A stretch of DNA of 64,000 nucleotides. It comes from Candidatus Sumerlaeaceae bacterium (GTDB lineage: Bacteria; Sumerlaeota; Sumerlaeia; Sumerlaeales; Sumerlaeaceae). The translations under genes were made by a program, and so were the position numbers. Below are positions 48,840-58,314 of the stretch, one piece after another. Under the pieces are notes generated by a model. That model saw only the letters and a list, made by a program, of their open reading frames with translations, was not told the DNA's origin and made no database searches. Every line of letters begins with the position of its first letter. The first letter of the stretch is position 1. Location of the stretch: contig JBMFRB010000001.1 of the NCBI GenBank assembly GCA_049968255.1, forward strand, positions 224,001 through 288,000, read 5' to 3'.

Positions 48840-48953
48840 CCTCCTCACTAGGGCGACTTCATTTAGGAACACGAAAGCGTTCGCGCGGGGGCAGGGAGCG
48901 CTTGACTTGGCAATGCTCCCATGGGCCAAAAGATCTGCGGGACGGTAAGCCTA

Positions 48954-51647
48954 ATGGCGGACAAGGAGCTTTACCTTATAGACGGGCATTCGCAGGTTTT
49001 CAAAGCGTACCACGCGATACAACAGCTCTCGACCTCGACGGGAATTCCCACCAATGCCGTCTTTGGCTTTTGCCAAATTCTGCATGCGTTGTTACGCAAC
49101 CATAATCCCGAATACCTGGCTGTGGTGTTTGACCGTCCCGAAGCAACATTCCGCGAAGCGATCTATGAGCAGTATAAAGCAAATCGTCCAGCCCCGCCGG
49201 CCGATCTTCCGCAACAGATGGCGTTCATCCAGCGCATTCTCGATGCCCTTCGTATACCGTATTTTGAAGCTCCAGGATATGAAGCCGACGACCTGATCGC
49301 CACAATTACGAAGCGCGCCCTGGCCGAAGGCTTCAAGGTTGTCATCGTAACAGCGGACAAAGACCTCTTCCAGCTCGTGAACGATCAGGTCGAGATCCTG
49401 AAGCTAGAGCCCGATGGCGAAGTGCGGTTTAATCGTCAAGCCGTGAGAGACAAGATGGGCGTGCACCCGGAGCAAATGTTGGATTTTTTGGCCATGGTTG
49501 GCGATGCTAGCGACAACATTCCCGGGATTCGAAAGGTGGGGCCCAAAACGGCAGCTAGTCTGCTGGCGGAATTTGGTTCGCTCGATGCCGTTCTGGAACA
49601 TGCGCATCAGCTCAAAGGCAAGCTGCGCGAATACGTAGAGCAAGGCAAGAACGACGCACTACTTTCGCGTCAACTCGTGGCCCTTCGCGATGATGCGCCC
49701 GTGGAAATCGATTGGGCCAAGCTTCGCCGGCAGGAGCCAGATTACGAGCGGCTGGCGGAAATTTATCGCCAGCTCGAGTTCCGACAATTCTTGCAAGAAA
49801 TTCTCTCAAAAGCCGCTCCGAAGGCGAAAGCCGTTCCAGTGAATTATCGAGCAATCTTCGATAGCAAGGAGTTAGAAAGATTTTGCGAAGAGGCAAAACG
49901 GGCAGGGCGGTTCGCTATTGATACCGAAACAGACTCGCTCGACGCGCTTTCCGCAAACTTGGTCGGCATCTCGCTCGCCTATCGCGCACACGAGGCAATT
50001 TACATTCCCCTGGGTCACCGCGGAAGCTTGCTGGAAAATCAGCCGCAGCAGATTAGCGTCAGCGACATTTACAAAATTCTTGGCCCACTGCTTCGTGATA
50101 GCGCAGTGCTGAAAATTGGTCACCACATCAAATTCGACCGGAAAGTCTTGCTCAAATACGGATTCGTTTTTCAAGGACCAGGCGCCGACACGCTCTTGGC
50201 CTCTTACCTGCTCAATCCCGACAAGCGCACGCACGGCCTAAAAAATCTCGTCCTAGACTGGCTTGGCGAGCAGATGACCCATCTGCAAGAGCTCATCGGC
50301 ACTGGGAAGCAGCAGATGACGTTCGACGGCGTGGATATCGAAACAGCCACGCGATATGCTGCAGCAGACGCCGATATGACGTTGCAGCTATGGGATAAAC
50401 TTGAGGCAAAGCTGCGCGAAGCGCAGCTCATCGAGCTCTTTGAGCGTATCGAAATGCCGCTCATCGATGTTCTGGTGGACATGGAGCTGGCGGGTGTGCG
50501 CATCGACGTCGACCATTTCCACAAGCTTTCCCAGCAGCTCGAACAGCGCCTAAACCACCTACGCACCCAAATTGTGGCGCTGGCTGGCGTCGAGTTCAAT
50601 CCGTCATCGCCTCGGCAGGTAGCCGATGTTCTTTTCCAGCATCTCAAGCTGCAGCCGAAACGTAAAGGGCGAATTGGCTACTCGACTGACATGGAGGTTT
50701 TGGATGAACTTTCGGCAGAACACGAATTGCCGAAACTCATCTTAGCATTCCGCCAGTTAGAGAAACTGAAGAACACCTACGTGGACGTGCTGCCGACGAT
50801 GCTCAATCCGGTGACCGGACGGATCCACACATCGTTCAATCAGACGATGGCAGCGACGGGACGTCTGACTTCGAGTGATCCCAACCTCCAAAATATCCCC
50901 GTGCGAACCGAGATCGGTCGTGAAATTCGCCGAGGATTTTTGCCGTCGCGCGAGAGCAACATCCTGCTGAGCGCCGACTACTCTCAGATCGAGTTGCGGA
51001 TCCTAGCGCACGTGTCACAGGATGAGCAACTCATTCGCGCATTTCGGGAAGAACGTGACGTGCACGCGCTCACGGCATCAAAGATTTTTGGCGTTGAGCC
51101 AGCCGACGTTACTCCTGAACAACGCGACCAAGCTAAGGTTGTGAATTTTGGGATTATTTACGGAATGAGTGCCCCTGGCCTCAGCCAGCGCCTGAAAATC
51201 CCTCTCGAACAAGCAAAAAGATTCATCGCCCAGTACTTCGAAGCCTATCAGGGCGTGAAAAGGTGGATCGAACAAATCATTCAGACGGCGCGGCAGTTTG
51301 GTTACGTGACCACACTTAGCGGGCGCAGGCGTTACCTTGCCGACATCAACTCGCAAAACTATAACGCACGCGCGGCGGCGGAGCGCATGGCTATCAACGC
51401 ACCCATTCAGGGATCCAGCGCTGATATGATCAAACTCGCCATGCTCGATATCCATCGTTGGCTAAAAGAAAGCGATTACCAGGCGCGCATGATCCTCCAA
51501 GTGCACGACGAACTGATTTTTGACGTGCCCGAGGAGGAACTCGAAAACATTCTGCCAGAAGTTCGGCGCAGAATGGAGAACGCAATGCCGCTCTGCGTGC
51601 CGGTTCGTGTGGATTGCAAATGGGGCAAGAATTGGGCCGAATGCTGA
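48954..51647 (+). CDS. polA: DNA polymerase I (5'-3' exonuclease, 3'-5' exonuclease, polymerase)
   Basis: LIDGHS, YEADD, GDASDNIPG, AIDTET, TGRLTSSDPNLQNIP, ADYSQIELR, NFGIIYG, LQVHDEL. Confidence 0.98.
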   Translation: MADKELYLIDGHSQVFKAYHAIQQLSTSTGIPTNAVFGFCQILHALLRNHNPEYLAVVFDRPEATFREAIYEQYKANRPAPPADLPQQMAFIQRILDALRIPYFEAPGYEADDLIATITKRALAEGFKVVIVTADKDLFQLVNDQVEILKLEPDGEVRFNRQAVRDKMGVHPEQMLDFLAMVGDASDNIPGIRKVGPKTAASLLAEFGSLDAVLEHAHQLKGKLREYVEQGKNDALLSRQLVALRDDAPVEIDWAKLRRQEPDYERLAEIYRQLEFRQFLQEILSKAAPKAKAVPVNYRAIFDSKELERFCEEAKRAGRFAIDTETDSLDALSANLVGISLAYRAHEAIYIPLGHRGSLLENQPQQISVSDIYKILGPLLRDSAVLKIGHHIKFDRKVLLKYGFVFQGPGADTLLASYLLNPDKRTHGLKNLVLDWLGEQMTHLQELIGTGKQQMTFDGVDIETATRYAAADADMTLQLWDKLEAKLREAQLIELFERIEMPLIDVLVDMELAGVRIDVDHFHKLSQQLEQRLNHLRTQIVALAGVEFNPSSPRQVADVLFQHLKLQPKRKGRIGYSTDMEVLDELSAEHELPKLILAFRQLEKLKNTYVDVLPTMLNPVTGRIHTSFNQTMAATGRLTSSDPNLQNIPVRTEIGREIRRGFLPSRESNILLSADYSQIELRILAHVSQDEQLIRAFREERDVHALTASKIFGVEPADVTPEQRDQAKVVNFGIIYGMSAPGLSQRLKIPLEQAKRFIAQYFEAYQGVKRWIEQIIQTARQFGYVTTLSGRRRYLADINSQNYNARAAAERMAINAPIQGSSADMIKLAMLDIHRWLKESDYQARMILQVHDELIFDVPEEELENILPEVRRRMENAMPLCVPVRVDCKWGKNWAEC

Positions 51648-51795
51648 CATGAGAAAATAAGACAAGGCTCGCAGAACCCGTAAAACCTAACGGATGGACG
51701 CAACCAAGAAAGCATGGAAGCTAAAGGACCGAGGAGGGGGAGTTCACTGCGAGGGAAGAGAGAAATGAGCACGCTCTCGTATGTGTTGGGCCACA

Positions 51796-51837
51796 AAAAG
51801 ACTCTGGCTCCCTTCCGGTTGGACGGAAGGAAGCCAC
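51796..51837 (-). terminator. Probable terminator between convergent polA and the Hsp70 operon
   Basis: On the minus strand GGCTTCCTTCCG-tccaac-CGGAAGGGAGCC followed by AGAGTCTTTTT. Confidence 0.6.
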
Positions 51838-51892
51838 CTATCTCGGTTCTTGCAGAGAGAGTGAGCCTTTTTGGTGGCTCATGCGAGCGGGC

Positions 51893-53647
51893 TTAGCCGG
51901 CCGCTTCGAGCTCAGTGAGGAGGCGCAACAGGTCATCCATTTTGTCTTCCAGCGCATCCTTGTCGCCTGCGTTGAGCAGATCTTTGAGCTGCTGAGCCTG
52001 CTCGCGCACCTGCTTGGCCAGTGGATGCGAGCCATGTGCAGAAAGCAGCGCGTTTGCCCGCGAGATGAGATTCTGAGCTTCGTCCACGATGGACTGCTTC
52101 ATCCGTTCGCGGAGCATGCGGGTGACGCGCTCGCGGGCTTCCTTGATCATGCGCTGCTTTTCGGCCTCCGACAAACGCGTTGCTGTGGCGGCAATGGTGA
52201 TTTTCTTCTCGACACCTGTCGCGAGATCTTCGGCCCGGACCTCGAGAATGCGGTCTGCATTGAGCTTGAACGTTACTTCGATGCGTGGGACCCCACGCGG
52301 TGCAGGTGTAATCCCCTCAATGCGCAACAGATCGAGGAAGGTGTTCTCGGATGCAATGGGCTCCTCCCCTTCGTATATGGGGAAGCTGATGGCTTCCTGA
52401 AAATCACGGGTTGTGGTGAAGATGTCTTTAGCTTCTGTGGGATAGGTCGAGTTGCGCTCGATGATTGGGGCAAACTGGTCGTTCTGAAGTCCAACACCGA
52501 GGGAGAACGGCGTCATGTGAATAATAACGGGCTTTTCTTTTCCGTAGCGAGCCGCAAGAGTGTCCTCGATGTCGCCGCCCAGCGGAGCGAGGACGAGTGA
52601 CTGCACCGCAGCTCCCATGGCCACAACTTCATCCGGCGAAATGTCCCGATGGGGCGTTTTGCCAAGCGTTTCCTTGACCACGCGTTGGATAGCTGGCATG
52701 CGCGTCTGACCACCGACCAACAGAATTGTATCAATCTTCTCCGGGGTGAGATGCGCATCTTCGATTGCTTTGAGCATTGGCTCGATCGTGGCTTTCACGA
52801 GATCATCGGTGAGCGCTTCGAGTGTTTGGCGCGTCAGGACAGTGTCGAGCGTGAGTGGCCCCTTCTCGGTCATTGTGATGGCTTCGACCAGGATGTGGGT
52901 TTCTTTCAGCTCGCTCAATTCTATCTTCGCTTCTTCGGCCGCTTCTTTTAGGCGCTGCATCGCGATAGGATCGTCGCTGAGATCAATGCCGTGTTGATTC
53001 TTGAACTCTTCGAGCAGCCACTCCTGGATGCGTTTGTCAAAATCGTCGCCGCCGAGGTGCGTATTGCCTTGAATGGCTAGCACCTGAAAAACGCCGGACA
53101 TGACTTCGATGATAGAGACGTCGAACGTGCCGCCCCCCAGGTCGTAAACGAGGATTGTTTGATCCTCGGCTTTGTCCATGCCGTAAGCGAGAGCGGCGGC
53201 CGTGGGCTCGTCGATGATTCGTCGCACCTTGAGGCCGGCAATCTCGCCCGCGTCTTTCGTGGCCTGACGTTGCGCATCGGTAAAATACGCCGGCACAGTG
53301 ATCACTGCCTGGTTGACTTCCTCCCCGAAGTAATCCTCCGTGTCGGTTTTGAGTTTTTGGAGGATCATGGCTGAAATCTCTTGGGGCGTGTACTGCTTTC
53401 CGTCAATGGTGACACGGTAATTTGTGCCCATGTGGCGTTTGATAGAAAACACTGTCCGGCCAACGTTCATCACCGCGGCGCGTTTGGCTTTTTTGCCGAC
53501 AAGGATTTCCCCGCTTTTGGTGAAAGCCACCACCGACGGCGTCAACCGTTCCCCTAGGCTATTGGGTACGATCATTGGGCCGTTCTTCTCGTAAACGGCG
53601 ACCACGGAGTTCGTGGTGCCTAGGTCAATTCCCATGATTCGGCTCAT
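51893..53647 (-). CDS. Hsp70/DnaK-family chaperone, divergent paralog
   Basis: GIDLGTTNS, TVPAYFTDAQRQATKDAG, EPTAAALAYG, DLGGGTFDVS, LVGGQTRMP, PAPRGVPRIEVTF; non-canonical linker and short C-terminus. Confidence 0.93.
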   Translation of the reverse strand: MSRIMGIDLGTTNSVVAVYEKNGPMIVPNSLGERLTPSVVAFTKSGEILVGKKAKRAAVMNVGRTVFSIKRHMGTNYRVTIDGKQYTPQEISAMILQKLKTDTEDYFGEEVNQAVITVPAYFTDAQRQATKDAGEIAGLKVRRIIDEPTAAALAYGMDKAEDQTILVYDLGGGTFDVSIIEVMSGVFQVLAIQGNTHLGGDDFDKRIQEWLLEEFKNQHGIDLSDDPIAMQRLKEAAEEAKIELSELKETHILVEAITMTEKGPLTLDTVLTRQTLEALTDDLVKATIEPMLKAIEDAHLTPEKIDTILLVGGQTRMPAIQRVVKETLGKTPHRDISPDEVVAMGAAVQSLVLAPLGGDIEDTLAARYGKEKPVIIHMTPFSLGVGLQNDQFAPIIERNSTYPTEAKDIFTTTRDFQEAISFPIYEGEEPIASENTFLDLLRIEGITPAPRGVPRIEVTFKLNADRILEVRAEDLATGVEKKITIAATATRLSEAEKQRMIKEARERVTRMLRERMKQSIVDEAQNLISRANALLSAHGSHPLAKQVREQAQQLKDLLNAGDKDALEDKMDDLLRLLTELEAAG

Positions 53648-53656
53648 GGTTCGTCC

Positions 53657-54196
53657 TTAACTCCTCTCATTATAAGCCACAACAACTTTTGCATCCCGAA
53701 GCAGTTTACCCCGGAACATATAGGCTTTTTGCCGTTCACTTATGACCGTGTCATGTGGGTGCTCGGTTGACGGGCGATATTCAACAACATCGTGAATATT
53801 GAGGTCAACCTTTTTCCCAACAGTATTTAGTTGCTGGAGGCCGTAGCTTTCGAGCAAGCGCAAAAGGCGGTAGTAGATGCTCTCCACGGCTTTGAGCCAA
53901 TTGTCGATTTCGTCGTTTTTGGGATAAGCCCGTGCCATGGCCAAGACGCGATCAAAAGCATCGAGCGTGGGCAAAAGCTGCCTGATAAATTTTTCTAATT
54001 CTTCGGGCTTGCCCTGGCACCGGAGGAGTTCCTCCTTCTCGAATTCGAGGTCGGCAAGCCGCTTCATTGTTTCGGCGACGCTCGACAGCAGGTCTTTCTC
54101 GGACACGACCTCGTCGGGCATCTGAAGATTAACCGGTTTTTCGTCAATCACAAACTCGCGAGCGAGAATCGGTTCGAGGATCCACGTATCTTTCAT
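53657..54196 (-). CDS. grpE: Nucleotide exchange factor GrpE (divergent)
   Basis: FIRQLLPTLDAFDR, VDLNIHDVV, RQKAYMFRGKLLRDAKVVV; directly upstream of Hsp70. Confidence 0.88.
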   Translation of the reverse strand: MKDTWILEPILAREFVIDEKPVNLQMPDEVVSEKDLLSSVAETMKRLADLEFEKEELLRCQGKPEELEKFIRQLLPTLDAFDRVLAMARAYPKNDEIDNWLKAVESIYYRLLRLLESYGLQQLNTVGKKVDLNIHDVVEYRPSTEHPHDTVISERQKAYMFRGKLLRDAKVVVAYNERS

Positions 54197-55482
54197 GCGC
54201 GCAGACGAATCTCCGAAATCGCTTTCTTGGCGAGCTTGTTTTTAGGATCTAATTCAAGGACTTTCTGGAACTCCGTGAGGGCTGCACGTCGATCGCCTTT
54301 GCGCAGTAAGGTGTCGGCGATTTCGTAATGGACCTCCCACGCTTTGGGCATGAGCTTCAAAAGTTCCTTGAAATGGACGAGGGCCTGTGTGAAGTGTCCC
54401 CCTTCTTTGAGCTTTTTGCCAACAGCCAAGCGCGCGCGAGCCATGGAATCGCGGATGGAAGAATTTTTCGGATCCTGGGCAAGGGCGCGGCGCCATGTGC
54501 TAAAGGCCATCTCGAACTTGCCCGCATTGAGATAGGCCCACCCGAGCAAATTCACCACATCAATGTTCTTTGGAAATTGCGCGTGGAGACTGAGAAGCTC
54601 CTCGATCGCTTCGTCGAACTTCTGCTCTTCCAAGAGCGTGGCGGCCACATTGTAGCGCGCCTCGAAATCGTTGGGGTTGTACTTGAGAATCTCACGATAC
54701 TGCTCGACAGCTTCCTGCTTAGTTTCGGGTGTTGGTACGCTTTGCAGTGCTCTCCCCCCGTGGTGTTTGTGGACCTCGATGATGCAGTTGCGCAGGTATT
54801 CGTTTGACGGATCTTTTTCCAGCTCCAATTTCCACCGGCGGATCGTTTCTTGCCAATACTTCTCCGCTTGGTCATGGCGTCCGAGCTGCTCGTAAGCAAT
54901 GGCAAGATTATGGATCAGCTCCGTGTTGCCGGGATCCATCTGGAGCGCGAGCTCCCACAAATTCACAGCTTCGTCGAGTAGATCGTGAAGTGCGTAATAA
55001 TAAGCAAGGTAGGCGTAGGCGAAGAACAGATTGTTTTTTGCGCGTTGGTGAGTGGGGTCAAGCTTCAGGACCGCCTGCCAATCTTTGATGGCTTCCGACC
55101 ACAATTTCTTCTGTGCGTTGCGATAGCTGCGCTTCATGTAATTGAGAATAAGCGCAGGTTTGATGGCAGGATTTTCGGGCTCACTTTCGAGCTGTCGCTC
55201 GAGTTCCCTAATTCGGCCGAGAATATCCGGTAGAGGATCTTCCTGTTTTTCCTCAGGCGAAAACGCAAACTCGCCCCTGATGAAATTGTAGGTGAAGACG
55301 TCTTCTTTGGCGCGCTTTACAGGGTCGCGAAGCCGGTCATAAGCGTTTTGGATGATCATGAAGCGCTCGGAGTGCTGCTCGGGATCGTAGCGCTTCACAA
55401 GCTCGATGTAAGCGCGCTTAATTTCCTGCTCGCTGGCCCCTTTGCGCAGGTTCAGTATGGCATAAGCGCTTTGCTCTGGCAT
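54193..55482 (-). CDS. J-domain (DPE instead of HPD) plus multi-TPR protein
   Basis: AYAILNLRKGASEQEIKRAYIELVKRYDPE..ERFMIIQNAYDRLRDP; many TPRs (e.g. WELALQMDPGN, FQKVLELDPKN). Confidence 0.88.
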   Translation of the reverse strand: MPEQSAYAILNLRKGASEQEIKRAYIELVKRYDPEQHSERFMIIQNAYDRLRDPVKRAKEDVFTYNFIRGEFAFSPEEKQEDPLPDILGRIRELERQLESEPENPAIKPALILNYMKRSYRNAQKKLWSEAIKDWQAVLKLDPTHQRAKNNLFFAYAYLAYYYALHDLLDEAVNLWELALQMDPGNTELIHNLAIAYEQLGRHDQAEKYWQETIRRWKLELEKDPSNEYLRNCIIEVHKHHGGRALQSVPTPETKQEAVEQYREILKYNPNDFEARYNVAATLLEEQKFDEAIEELLSLHAQFPKNIDVVNLLGWAYLNAGKFEMAFSTWRRALAQDPKNSSIRDSMARARLAVGKKLKEGGHFTQALVHFKELLKLMPKAWEVHYEIADTLLRKGDRRAALTEFQKVLELDPKNKLAKKAISEIRLRA

Positions 55483-55625
55483 TGTTGTCTGCGGTTACCC
55501 AGCCTCAGCTTTTCGATTTTCTCAACACGATCGTAGTGTTCACTTCAAAGGAGAGCAACATAAAACCGTTCCTCTCTCGCTGCCATGCGGATCGCTGCAA
55601 TCGACCAATGCTCGTTGCTATTTAC

Positions 55626-55662
55626 CCCCCGCCTCCTGTTTGTGGTCAACAGTCGGCGGGGG
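55626..55662. terminator. GC-rich hairpin between the glycoside hydrolase and the chaperone operon
   Basis: CCCCCGCC-tc-CTGTT...AACAG-tc-GGCGGGGG; no clear U tract on the minus strand. Confidence 0.4.
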
Positions 55663-55681
55663 ACGCCAATTCGTTTTTGTG

Positions 55682-57226
55682 TCACTTTGCATGCATGCCT
55701 GCGGATGCAAGCCAGGTCGCACGGGCACTTTCGTTGCCGCAGCGGTCGACTGCCGAAACAGCGACGATCTCGGGAAGCGCTCCATCTTTGTCTGGCGCAA
55801 ACACCTTCGACTCGACCTGAGCCGGCAGAATTTCGGTAGACCATTTCGAACCCGTTTTTGCGTGCACCACCCAAACACGCACGTCGTTGGGATCCTTGGG
55901 TTTCCAAGCAGCAAGAAGTTTCTGGTCCTCGCGTGTGACTTCGAGCGACGGCTTAGCCGGAACTTTGGCGTCGAGCCAGGGCATCGCAGGAACCAGCGCT
56001 GGCTTGTCATAGATACCTGACGTTGTGAGTTCGTCATTGATGCCAAGACGATTTTCCATGAAGACCGACATGCTGAAATGCACCTGCCCACTGGGCTTGA
56101 CGAGGATGCGCGTCCACTTGATCTGGTTAATGATCTCCTCGGACGTCCAACTGGTCTTGCTCTTATCTCCCACTTTGCTTGTGAAGAGACCAGGCCAAAT
56201 GTGGCGCTTCATTTTATTCTGCTCGCTCCACCACGTCAGCAAAGCCACAAAGCTCTGCTCAGGGGCCGCAATTCGCCAGTAGAGCTGAGGCGTCCAATAG
56301 TCTACCCAACCTTTTTCGAGCCATAAACGTGCATCCGCGTAAAGCTTATCATATTGGCTGAAACCTTTCACTTGGGGCGGATAGCCCGGCTTCCAAATCC
56401 CGAAGGGGCTGAGGCCGAACTTCACCCATGGTTTGTCCTGCTTGATGCCTTTATAGAGGCGTTCCATGAGCGAGTTCACTGCCTGACGACGCCAATCCGC
56501 CCGATCGAGCTTTCCTCCACTACGTCGGTATGCTTGGTATGTCTCCTCATCCGGAAAATCTAGTTCCTTGCCCGTTGCCTTGTCCTTCTCTGGATATGGG
56601 TAAAAATAATCGTCCATGTGCACGCCGTCTATGTCGTAGCGCTTCACGACGTCCATAACGACAGCGTACGTGTGGTCTTGGACTTCTTTATCCGCGGGAT
56701 TCAGCCAGAGATAACTGCCATACTTTTTTACGAGTTGCGGTTTGGTTTTGCTGACGTGGTCTTCCGAAATAGGCCCCTTGTAACTGGGGTGCAAAGCGCG
56801 ATAAGGATTGAACCAGGCATGGAGTTCCAAACCGCGTTTGTGGCATTCGTCGACCGCGAAGGCGAGTGGATCGTAGTAGGGCTCGGGTGCCTTGCCCATT
56901 GTGCCAGTGAGATAGGGCGACCACGGTTCGAGCTTCGAAGCGTAGAGCGCGTCGCAGGCAGGGCGCACTTGAAGCACGATGCCGTTGAGATTCAGGGCCT
57001 TAGCTTTTTCGAGAATCGCAATCAGCTCCGCCTTTTGCTGCTCGACGGAGGAACGCGCCGCGCTGCTTGGCCAATCAATGTTAGCTACGGTAGCCACCCA
57101 TACCCCTCGAAACTCACGTTGCACTTCGGGGAAAGTGGTGACGGAGTCGGCCGAGGGCTTTGCGCTGGCAGCCATCCCGGCCAAGACAACTGCGGCACTC
57201 AATGTGCGGAGCCCTAAGTTTTTCAT
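55682..57226 (-). CDS. Secreted glycosyl hydrolase-like 10 (YddW/DigH family)
   Basis: Signal peptide; REFRGVWVATVANIDWPS, QVRPACDALY, YDPLAF, ELHAWFNPYR, YDIDGVHMDDYFYPY, DYWTPQLYW. Confidence 0.9.
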   Translation of the reverse strand: MKNLGLRTLSAAVVLAGMAASAKPSADSVTTFPEVQREFRGVWVATVANIDWPSSAARSSVEQQKAELIAILEKAKALNLNGIVLQVRPACDALYASKLEPWSPYLTGTMGKAPEPYYDPLAFAVDECHKRGLELHAWFNPYRALHPSYKGPISEDHVSKTKPQLVKKYGSYLWLNPADKEVQDHTYAVVMDVVKRYDIDGVHMDDYFYPYPEKDKATGKELDFPDEETYQAYRRSGGKLDRADWRRQAVNSLMERLYKGIKQDKPWVKFGLSPFGIWKPGYPPQVKGFSQYDKLYADARLWLEKGWVDYWTPQLYWRIAAPEQSFVALLTWWSEQNKMKRHIWPGLFTSKVGDKSKTSWTSEEIINQIKWTRILVKPSGQVHFSMSVFMENRLGINDELTTSGIYDKPALVPAMPWLDAKVPAKPSLEVTREDQKLLAAWKPKDPNDVRVWVVHAKTGSKWSTEILPAQVESKVFAPDKDGALPEIVAVSAVDRCGNESARATWLASAGMHAK

Positions 57227-57768: not shown

Positions 57769-58314
57769 GTGATGAAGCGGACAGTTCCTGTGGTTCATGT
57801 GAAACTACTGGTTCTTCTCGCGGTGGTGGCGGTGGTGAGTTCAGGCTGCCGCGGCTTCATGAAAGATTCCCCATTTGCTCGTTGGTTTGGAAAAGCTGTC
57901 GGCGCAGGTCAGGGCCCAACGTCGCTCGAGAGCTCGATGCTGCCTGAGCCAATTCGAGATAAAGCAACCCGCAGTGTTCCTGAGCTCCAACCGATTTACT
58001 TCGAGTTCGATAGCGCCGAGCTTCTCGCCCCGGCCAAAGAACAATTGCAGCGCAACGCCGAGTGGCTGAAGCAGAACACCCGCGTGCACGTGCAGATTGA
58101 GGGACATTGCGACGAGCGTGGGACTGCAGAATATAATTACGCACTCGGCCAGCGACGCGCCGACGCAGCGCGGATGTTCCTTATCCAGGAAGGGATCGCT
58201 CCGGCCAGGTTACACACGATCAGCTACGGCGCCGAGAGACCGGCTGATCCGGGTCACAATGACATGGCATGGGCGCGTAATCGGCGGGTTGAATTCAAAA
58301 TTTACGGCGAATAG
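57769..58314 (+). CDS. pal: Peptidoglycan-associated lipoprotein (OmpA_C domain)
   Basis: Lipobox VSSGC; IYFEFDS, IEGHCDERGTAEYNYALGQRRA, ISYGAERP, NRRVEF; AGGAGG RBS. Confidence 0.88.
   Translation: MMKRTVPVVHVKLLVLLAVVAVVSSGCRGFMKDSPFARWFGKAVGAGQGPTSLESSMLPEPIRDKATRSVPELQPIYFEFDSAELLAPAKEQLQRNAEWLKQNTRVHVQIEGHCDERGTAEYNYALGQRRADAARMFLIQEGIAPARLHTISYGAERPADPGHNDMAWARNRRVEFKIYGE

Follow-up and report, generated by a model that had tools for sequence, protein, structure and literature searches.

The three-gene Hsp70 operon

In a stretch of 64,000 nt from contig JBMFRB010000001.1 of Candidatus Sumerlaeaceae bacterium (the window, to which all coordinates refer) three tightly coupled genes lie on the minus strand. 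They encode a co-chaperone that joins a J-domain to tetratricopeptide repeats (J-TPR; 54193-55482, 429 aa), a GrpE (53657-54196, 179 aa) and an atypical Hsp70 (51893-53647, 584 aa). The J-domain has DPE where HPD is expected, and the Hsp70 is altered at the positions to which a J-domain would dock. The three proteins probably form a co-evolved, specialised and insulated Hsp70 system. The open reading frames (ORFs) had been described in an earlier note made from the letters of the DNA, and their coordinates were exact when compared with the ORF list.

The stop codon of the J-TPR gene and the start codon of grpE overlap in an ATGA at 54193-54196, and the grpE stop is separated from the ATG of the Hsp70 gene by 9 nt, both as the note had it. 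This spacer reads GGACGAACC and is preceded by GAGAGGAG. Just past the Hsp70 stop a terminator-like hairpin with a 13-bp stem is followed by a T run (51805-51836, minus strand), and a promoter scan of 51600-55800 returned no sigma-70-like promoter. Because of the overlap, the short spacer, the hairpin with its T run and the lack of an internal promoter of this type, the three genes are predicted to form one transcription unit. The consensus of the CIRCE heat-shock operator gave 0 matches genome-wide at up to 3 mismatches. Among sequencing data sets, one of DNA (from a hot springs metagenome) and none of RNA was listed as containing the sequence.

The J-domain (residues 6-59; 55306-55467) scored 48.8 bits with Pfam PF00226 (cut-off 27.8) and was aligned by HMMER to solved J-domains down to an E-value of 1e-7. 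At the position of H-P-D-x-N it carries D33-P34-E35-Q36-H37 (55372-55386); codon arithmetic and the alignments agree on the DPE that had been read at 55378-55386. Two features of this loop had been overlooked: it is 5-6 residues shorter than in solved J-domains and about 6 shorter than in the DnaJ of the same genome, and a conserved His has newly appeared in it at position 37. The TPR array (approximately residues 100-425; 54208-55185) was recognized by many Pfam TPR families (TPR_2, TPR_19, TPR_1, TPR_11 and others), and a profile of this part matched just generic TPR structures in the PDB, DNAJC3 among them. The array may plausibly select clients, as the note had supposed.

The GrpE was recognized by Pfam PF01025 at 94.9 bits (cut-off 25.8) and stayed under every NCBIfam GrpE equivalog cut-off, the best score being 63.5 versus 184. 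Two short segments outside the Pfam domains were seen to be conserved. One is RAxEDxFTFNxxxGEFxF, which directly follows the J-domain (residues 60-80; 55243-55305) and in which E60 and D61 are invariant and N66 and F72 are kept in at least 90%. The other is an N-terminal EF-x-IDE in the GrpE (residues 8-22; 54131-54175), which is kept even in orthologs that are 37-46% identical. A further contact with the Hsp70, or a role as pseudo-substrate, is conceivable for either of them.

Pfam PF00012 covers residues 4-579 of the Hsp70 with 617.8 bits (cut-off 20.6). The canonical DnaK models of NCBIfam gave 686.4 for PRK00290 (cut-off 648) and 658.8 for TIGR02350 (cut-off 822.55). In an alignment to Escherichia coli DnaK (2KHO) the residues R143, D146, Q349, H377, P403, K461 and D465 correspond to R167, N170, Q378, D393, P419, D477 and D481 respectively. 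The note had claimed that the linker Asp is replaced by His (52517-52519) and that RIINEP reads RIIDEP (53210-53212), and both replacements were found again: H377, in the linker P-V-I-I-H-M-T-P-F, stands under D393, and R143 and D146 stand under R167 and N170. The hallmarks of canonical DnaK, VLLLD with Asp393 and RIINEP with Asn170, are thus represented here by PVIIH and RIIDEP. Lys461 (52265-52267) takes the place of D477, the partner of K48 in DnaJ. An insertion of 10 residues before the interdomain linker (approximately residues 363-372; 52532-52561), which had escaped notice, appears as a gap of 10 in four solved DnaKs. The Walker-type motifs GIDLGTTNS and DLGGGTFD are readable in the alignment to 2KHO, as are the equivalents of K70, within SIKRHMG, and of E171, within IDEP. 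The 290-295 loop, which HscA lacks, is present, and the 76-101 segment of lobe I is absent.

The substrate-binding part is altered as well. Loop L1,2 matches that of DnaK in length and reads VGLQNDQ versus IETMGGV in E. coli, and its residues L383, G384, V385, G386, L387, D390 and Q391 are invariant in the clade described below. A loop that is changed and yet held constant argues for a distinct client range of this Hsp70. The lid is short and has no disordered tail. At the C-terminus (51893-51940) most of 45 orthologs share a moderately conserved (T/A)-E-(L/I/V)-E-(A/S)-(A/G)-x, which by analogy with EEVD could be a docking site for the TPRs of the partner.

Conservation in Sumerlaeota and origin of the system

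A scan of species-representative genomes yielded 78 loci, 57 of which (L011-L067) have a full-length J-TPR gene and 21 of which match its TPR part only. Every named genome among the 57 is labelled as Sumerlaeota or by the former name of this phylum, BRC1. A full Hsp70 gene follows downstream in 44 of these loci, with one more that is partial at a contig end, and grpE lies between the two genes in 41. One subclade (L043, L050, L051 and L058) has no grpE at this place, the intergenic region measuring approximately 180-220 nt, and appears to have lost the dedicated exchange factor. Five genomes in which the J-TPR gene stands alone were searched; each of them encodes an Hsp70 ortholog elsewhere (68-71% identity) with the same motifs, in four cases beside a GrpE-like ORF. 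Of 75 genomes across the phylum, 43 of which are of high quality, 68 have the atypical Hsp70 (E <=1e-180; 42 of the high-quality genomes) and 64 have canonical DnaK (E <=1e-200; 41 of the high-quality genomes), which indicates that the two systems coexist as a rule. The system is phylum-wide in Sumerlaeota and probably vertically inherited. Orthologs of the Hsp70 are 65-97% identical, a sign of strong purifying selection, as are the preserved Walker-type motifs, the 290-295 loop and the kept interface residues listed below.

The genome of the window (3.1 Mb, 31 contigs, 95.75% complete) illustrates this coexistence. A genome-wide search found four Hsp70, four J-domain and two GrpE genes, among which a canonical set of a DnaK with RIINEP and VLLLDVTPLSLG, two class A DnaJ proteins (HPD, zinc-finger motifs) and one GrpE. 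The earlier note had asked for a separate canonical dnaK-dnaJ, and with its presence elsewhere in the genome the Hsp70 of the window is not the only dnaK; the two proteins are 49% identical. The window therefore holds a complete extra Hsp70 machine beside the housekeeping DnaK, DnaJ and GrpE. None of the other three Hsp70s of the genome shares its odd linker or RIIDEP, all of them carrying the canonical residues, and its J-TPR protein has the only J-domain that is not HPD. A second J-TPR gene (L107:252-1007, 251 aa, HPD) lies 8-9 nt upstream of a gene for a 606-aa Hsp70 (L107:1016-2836; contig G000:C2) with RIINEP and VLLLD. This pair is an internal control, as it is a dedicated-looking J-TPR/Hsp70 couple that lacks the interface changes.

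The departure from HPD, the defining tripeptide of the functional classes A-C of J-domain proteins (JDPs), is constant in the clade and no accident of one genome: HPD occurs in 0 of 56 genomic copies of J-TPR. By the HPD rule the protein would be classed as a type IV JDP. Position 33 in these copies is D in 47, P in 4, N in 3 and T in 2, the Pro at 34 is kept in 55, the Glu at 35 in all 56 and the His at 37 in 52. The 131 metagenomic homologs agree with this, having DPE in 106, PPE in 12, TPE and NPE in 5 each, NPD, SPE and RPE in 1 each and HPD in 0, and H37 is found in 121 of them. What the family conserves is x-P-E-x-H on a short loop and not D-P-E. Outside the loop Y7, L10, K14, K22, E35, F41, L51, R57, A58, E60 and D61 were invariant in 33 sequences. 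Compared with the canonical DnaJ of the genome, K/R26 has become V, I or F, R/K27 mostly E, D, N or Q and also T, and K48 has become M in 46 of 56 copies; the change of N37 to H (52 of 56) has been mentioned.

The Hsp70 side is equally uniform. The linker His and the Asp of RIIDEP are present in all 45 operon-linked proteins and in the five unlinked orthologs. Among the 150 best representatives in the protein search, a His at the linker position is found in just three entries, all of the clade, and an Asp at the N170 position in these three and in P0215, which is unrelated and has a normal linker. In DnaK numbering, all 45 proteins have N170D, D393H, G482R, I418Y and L397F. D211 is replaced by S (43) or N (2), E217 by Q (37) or R (8), D477 by R (24), K (20) or H (1), and N147 by T in 41. 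At the equivalents of P143, R151, R167, E171, Q378, P419 and D481, 44-45 of the 45 proteins retain the canonical residue (all 45 at R167), and 43 do so at K155.

A search of 1.84 billion representatives with the Hsp70 returned one full-length cluster of the clade (P0121, 912 bits; 50% cluster) and two fragments, after which the next match scored 559 bits at no more than 51% identity over the full length. In a maximum-likelihood tree of 83 Hsp70s the clade is monophyletic (SH-aLRT 99) and sits among DnaK-like short Hsp70s. Its sister (support 99) is P0173, a protein of 584 aa with N170D, Tyr at 418, Arg at 482 and the pre-linker insertion, which is common only to it and the clade. P0173 differs in that R167 is replaced by Ala and D393 by Pro, in its linker KPVAVPRTPHALG and in a still longer insertion. 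The one close locus of this lineage is a metagenome contig of 1.7 kb (L104) where a truncated GrpE-like ORF (L104:225-608) lies directly upstream of the Hsp70 ORF (L104:601-1665), and on which no J gene was found. The next relatives, P0208, P0212 and P0243, have the canonical D393 and N170, which suggests that the remodelling of the interface arose on the stem of a small lineage. In the ESM Atlas P0212 retrieved only Hsp70 look-alikes from Myxococcota and Pseudomonadota.

In the window the operon is flanked by genes for a GHL10-family glycosyl-hydrolase-like protein (55682-57226, minus strand), DNA polymerase I (48921-51647, plus strand) and an OmpA-family protein (57769-58314, plus strand), none of which is kept beside the operon in other genomes. 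Apart from the three operon genes, the sole recurrent neighbour was an ORF of approximately 563 aa that lies 3' of the Hsp70 gene in 18 of the 57 loci (e.g. L021:9783-11474) and has a Cys-rich, zinc-ribbon-like N-terminal start and TPR/YfiO-like repeats; other recurrent 'families' were antisense shadows. The window does not have this ORF, and polA converges there instead. The fourth Hsp70 gene of the genome (L106:79-3561; G000:C3:171878-175360) encodes a protein of 1160 aa that combines an Hsp70 nucleotide-binding domain (NBD) and the beta part of the substrate-binding domain (SBD-beta) with a TPR-like middle and a C-terminal Ser/Thr kinase. Its Pfam scores are 603 bits for HSP70 (residues 7-535) and 174.7 bits for Pkinase (902-1145), and its linker and its RLLNEP are near-canonical.

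The J-domain/Hsp70 interface and its possible function

In the complex of DnaJ with DnaK, H33 has been described to hydrogen-bond the backbone carbonyl of L391, P34 to pack on P419, D35 to bond R167 and Q378, and K48 to form a salt bridge with D477 (PMC8215388, PMC13012618). R167 itself is otherwise ion-paired with D393 and D481 inside DnaK, and D35 displaces it from these partners (PMC7289447). The residues that are changed in the clade are named DnaK-DnaJ contacts (PMC8215388 and a preprint). The acidic patch of lobe IIA (D211, E217) and the basic partners in helix II (K26, R27) are neutralised together, and in place of the K48-D477 bridge a Met would face a Lys or Arg, which would repel a canonical DnaJ. 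The whole J/Hsp70 interface is remodelled on both partners.

The earlier note had proposed a compensatory swap in which the J-domain exchanged His for Asp and the linker Asp for His, and by which the pair is insulated from DnaK and DnaJ. A direct contact between Asp33 and His377 that replaces a canonical contact of His33 with Asp393 would account for a co-occurrence of the two changes, which the note had suggested to test in homologous operons, and such a co-occurrence was found: all 50 Hsp70s with a His linker and RIIDEP go with a J-domain that lacks the His. It also speaks for such a contact that H33 touches the linker two residues upstream, at L391/L392 (PMC8215388, PMC13012618). However, DnaK holds no canonical pair that could be swapped, since D393 pairs intramolecularly with R167 and H33 contacts a backbone carbonyl (PMC8215388, PMC7289447). 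Moreover, position 33 varies among D, P, N, T, S and R, whereas the linker His is constant: of the 56 genomic copies 9 have P, N or T there, and of the 131 metagenomic ones 25 have P, T, N, S or R. On a tree of 49 J/Hsp70 pairs, from which the motif columns had been excluded, position 33 left Asp at least four times and the linker His changed 0 times. In the related J-domains of Firmicutes that are described below, Pro occupies the first position in 117 of the best 120 of 147 proteins. The co-occurrence is real, but it amounts to a single evolutionary event, and Asp33 is the conserved partner of nothing. A direct Asp33-His377 pair as the cause of insulation is therefore considered highly improbable. 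The wider claim of insulation fared better in so far as the clade-wide changes on both surfaces fit an insulated pair; it was the swap as its cause that found no support.

The residue that follows the linker His, M378, offers a hint of local coupling with position 33. It changed in two lineages, to Arg in L017 and L019 and to Leu in L049 and L054, both of which have a J33 other than Asp, a point in favour of the direct pair, and three of these four sequences have no H37. When J33 or J37 was compared with the residues that flank the His in independent pairs, two changes were concordant, for which a sign test gave p values of 0.5 to 1. A mutual-information scan of J against Hsp70 columns in the 49 pairs was set aside: the pairs that ranked highest lie at a distance from the interface and owe their signal to common ancestry.

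The reading that we favour, and hold to be fairly probable, is that of a working, private and phylum-wide second Hsp70 cycle in which Pro34 and Glu35 take over the trigger directed at Arg167 and the His of HPD is dispensable. From the gene order, the conservation, the co-occurrence and the differing residues we infer that the J-domain binds the Hsp70 and stimulates its ATPase, that the pair is insulated and that the TPRs have a role with clients. In such a cycle the TPR array would hold a particular client or docking partner while the N-terminal J-domain docks at the junction of NBD, linker and SBD-beta of the ATP form. Pro34-Glu35 would act in the role of Pro34-Asp35 by engaging the retained equivalents of R167, Q378 and P419 and would free the Arg from its interdomain contacts. 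The His of HPD would not be needed, as we propose, because the linker region is different, with its VII-His, the 10-residue pre-linker insertion and N170D. ATP hydrolysis would then trap the client in the altered substrate cleft and the dedicated GrpE would reset the cycle. Cross-talk with canonical DnaJ and DnaK would be disfavoured by the loss of K26, R27 and K48 from the J-domain and by the neutralisation or reversal of D211, E217 and D477 in the Hsp70. A Glu at the third place of the motif is the one tolerated variant, known from DjlB and DjlC with HscC (PMC13254874, PMC10410713).

Several points weigh against this cycle. In DnaK, D393A or mutants of the hydrophobic linker blunt the effects of linker and J-domain (PMC8215388, PMC7289447), and by this precedent both partners look impaired. 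The residue at the first position of the J motif, which is free to vary, is not a conserved contact. An exchange factor of its own is not obligatory, since grpE is missing from the operon in the four loci L043, L050, L051 and L058, in whose genomes only weak GrpE matches of 24-30% identity were found. Co-variation at the interface within the clade was confined to two lineages and was not significant, and J residue 27 and Hsp70 residue 217 pair without sense in the pair table. Finally, the neighbourhoods of the 57 loci gave no clue to a client.

The main rival reading is a pseudo-J of type IV: the J-domain would tie the TPR protein to the Hsp70, or pair with another J-domain in the manner of Pam16 and Pam18, without triggering hydrolysis, and the Hsp70 would run on its basal or substrate-driven ATPase or on canonical DnaJs. 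Non-conservative replacements of HPD are presumed to abolish stimulation, and Pam16 carries DKE (PMC13254874); stimulation of DnaK by linker and J-domain needs D393 and a hydrophobic linker (PMC8215388); and the free variation at motif position 1 is in keeping with a tether. On the other hand, the near invariance of P34 and E35 (55 and 56 of 56; in Firmicutes 119 and 120 of 120, taken from the best 120 of 147) would not be expected if the loop had lost its function. All 45 Hsp70s retain Arg167, with which the acidic residue pairs, and HPE is functional with HscC (PMC13254874). The changes at K48/D477 and at K26/R27 and D211/E217 would make canonical DnaJ a poor fit, and from the dedicated GrpE a genuine nucleotide cycle can be deduced. 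A pseudo-J is thus regarded as unlikely.

The Hsp70 could also be a co-chaperone of the housekeeping DnaK, which acts as an Hsp110-like exchange factor or as a disaggregation helper. Such a role was recently suggested for derivatives of bacterial DnaK whose linkers are modified (PMC13580251), and the changed linker, the short lid, the absence of a disordered tail and the fact that some lineages dispense with their own GrpE would go with it. Nevertheless, NBD, linker, SBD-beta and lid are all kept (Pfam 4-579), the protein has its own J partner and usually its own GrpE, and the altered, clade-invariant substrate loop points to binding of specific clients. We therefore think this role very unlikely, and the private cycle remains the preferred reading.

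Known systems, Firmicutes relatives and significance

Among described systems HscC with DjlC and DjlB comes close, as it is a specialised Hsp70 served solely by its own class C J-protein, whose motif has Glu at the third place, HPE (PMC8215388, PMC13254874). Like the Hsp70 of the window, HscC is without segment 76-101 of lobe I, and its chain is shorter than that of DnaK (PMC8215388). The likeness ends there: DjlB and DjlC keep the His, which is never present in J-TPR, and HscC has no GrpE signature and is thought to be GrpE-independent (PMC8215388), whereas here the loop is present and grpE lies within the operon in 41 of 57 loci. The partner is moreover a soluble protein with an N-terminal J-domain and a long TPR array, and no HscC model of NCBIfam matched the Hsp70 of the window. 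Further marks of HscC are a deletion in helix B and an insertion in L1,2, a loop that in the present Hsp70 is as long as in DnaK. HscA and HscB, the chaperones of Fe-S clusters, are likewise an Hsp70 and a J-protein devoted to each other, and their range of clients is narrow; the motif of HscB is HPD. No isc genes are among the annotated neighbouring genes in the window, and the HscA model TIGR01991 gave 458 versus a cut-off of 708.55. HscA carries a deletion of 290-295 and does not use GrpE (PMC8215388), unlike the present Hsp70 with its loop and its grpE. By these comparisons the system would work like HscC/DjlC and HscA/HscB, as a specialised Hsp70 with a J-protein of its own, but it is a member of neither.

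Type IV JDPs such as Pam16 (DKE) and DNAJB13 (HPL) resemble J-TPR in having a recognisable J fold with a non-conservatively changed HPD (PMC13254874). They are, however, single proteins that have no co-evolved Hsp70, whereas here Pro-Glu is strictly selected and an altered Hsp70 and a nucleotide exchange factor are co-transcribed with the J gene. DNAJC7/TPR2 and DNAJC3/p58IPK also join a J-domain to TPRs, by which clients or the tails of Hsp70s are bound, and DnaJ-TPR is a recognised class of architecture (PMC10410713). These eukaryotic proteins differ in that they have HPD and carry the J-domain toward the C-terminal side; the other J-TPR of the genome (L107:252-1007) has HPD as well.

A search with the J region only brought up 38 proteins, 37 of the same architecture and one, P0282, a 417-aa protein labelled Firmicutes that has PPETH. 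Its family comprises 147 proteins of approximately 417 aa, the best 120 of which (P0282-P0401) have PPE in 117, TPE in 2, SPE in 1 and never HPD. The labels include Desulforamulus reducens MI-1 (P0300), Desulfosporosinus, Paenibacillus (including Paenibacillus cymbidii), Bacillus canaveralius and Alkaliphilus. In hhalign the two J profiles aligned gaplessly over 59 columns with 49% identity (probability 99.2, E 2e-19). Both families have the equally short loop, the P-E-x-H core and TPRs after the J-domain. They are unlike in the first motif position, which is nearly always Pro in these Firmicutes, in helix IV, where the Firmicutes proteins retain the usual Y-D, and in the C-terminal part, which is unrelated beyond the TPRs. 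No plasmid match was found for the Firmicutes genes, and a scan of viral contigs gave unrelated viral J-domains only.

A bolder version of the private cycle would be a fully orthogonal Hsp70/J/GrpE machine with moved trigger geometry, which makes the His of HPD dispensable. Here the J-domain with x-P-E-x-H would trigger ATP hydrolysis, and would do so in no other Hsp70 than its cognate one with the His linker. The changes that matter would be Glu35 acting on Arg167, a His that comes from the Hsp70 linker and/or J position 37, N170D and the longer pre-linker. To this version we would give somewhat less than an even chance. If it is true, many cultivated Firmicutes would, through the PPE family, share this other way of triggering.

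That the system is undescribed, as the earlier note had supposed, is in line with a literature search in which no paper joined Sumerlaeota with Hsp70. Nor did this search find a description of a bacterial non-HPD J-domain in an Hsp70 operon, the study of Barriot et al. (2020) on bacterial and viral J-domain proteins lying outside its coverage. A large survey of J-domains removed sequences without HPD before its main analysis, HPE being the one variant that it reports (PMC10410713), and one of its supplements has no HPE, PPE, DPE or triad entry. In a review from 2026 it is called enigmatic whether deviations from HPD are accident or positive selection, and HPE is the sole tolerated change that is named (PMC13254874).

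A non-HPD J-domain that is kept phylum-wide, whose gene is transcribed together with those for an Hsp70 and a GrpE and which is changed together with the opposite surface, has the look that would be expected of selection for an alternative, private interface. The system therefore offers a natural test case for the switching of Hsp70s by J-domains and makes the open question of the non-HPD proteins directly testable, the three proteins being small, soluble and easily assayed. Although Sumerlaeota are known mostly from metagenomes, the PPE relatives are labelled with cultivated organisms, so that genetics may be possible. If the His of HPD proves replaceable, the pair would be a natural template for orthogonal chaperone pairs; otherwise, a conserved pseudo-J would serve another role in this phylum.

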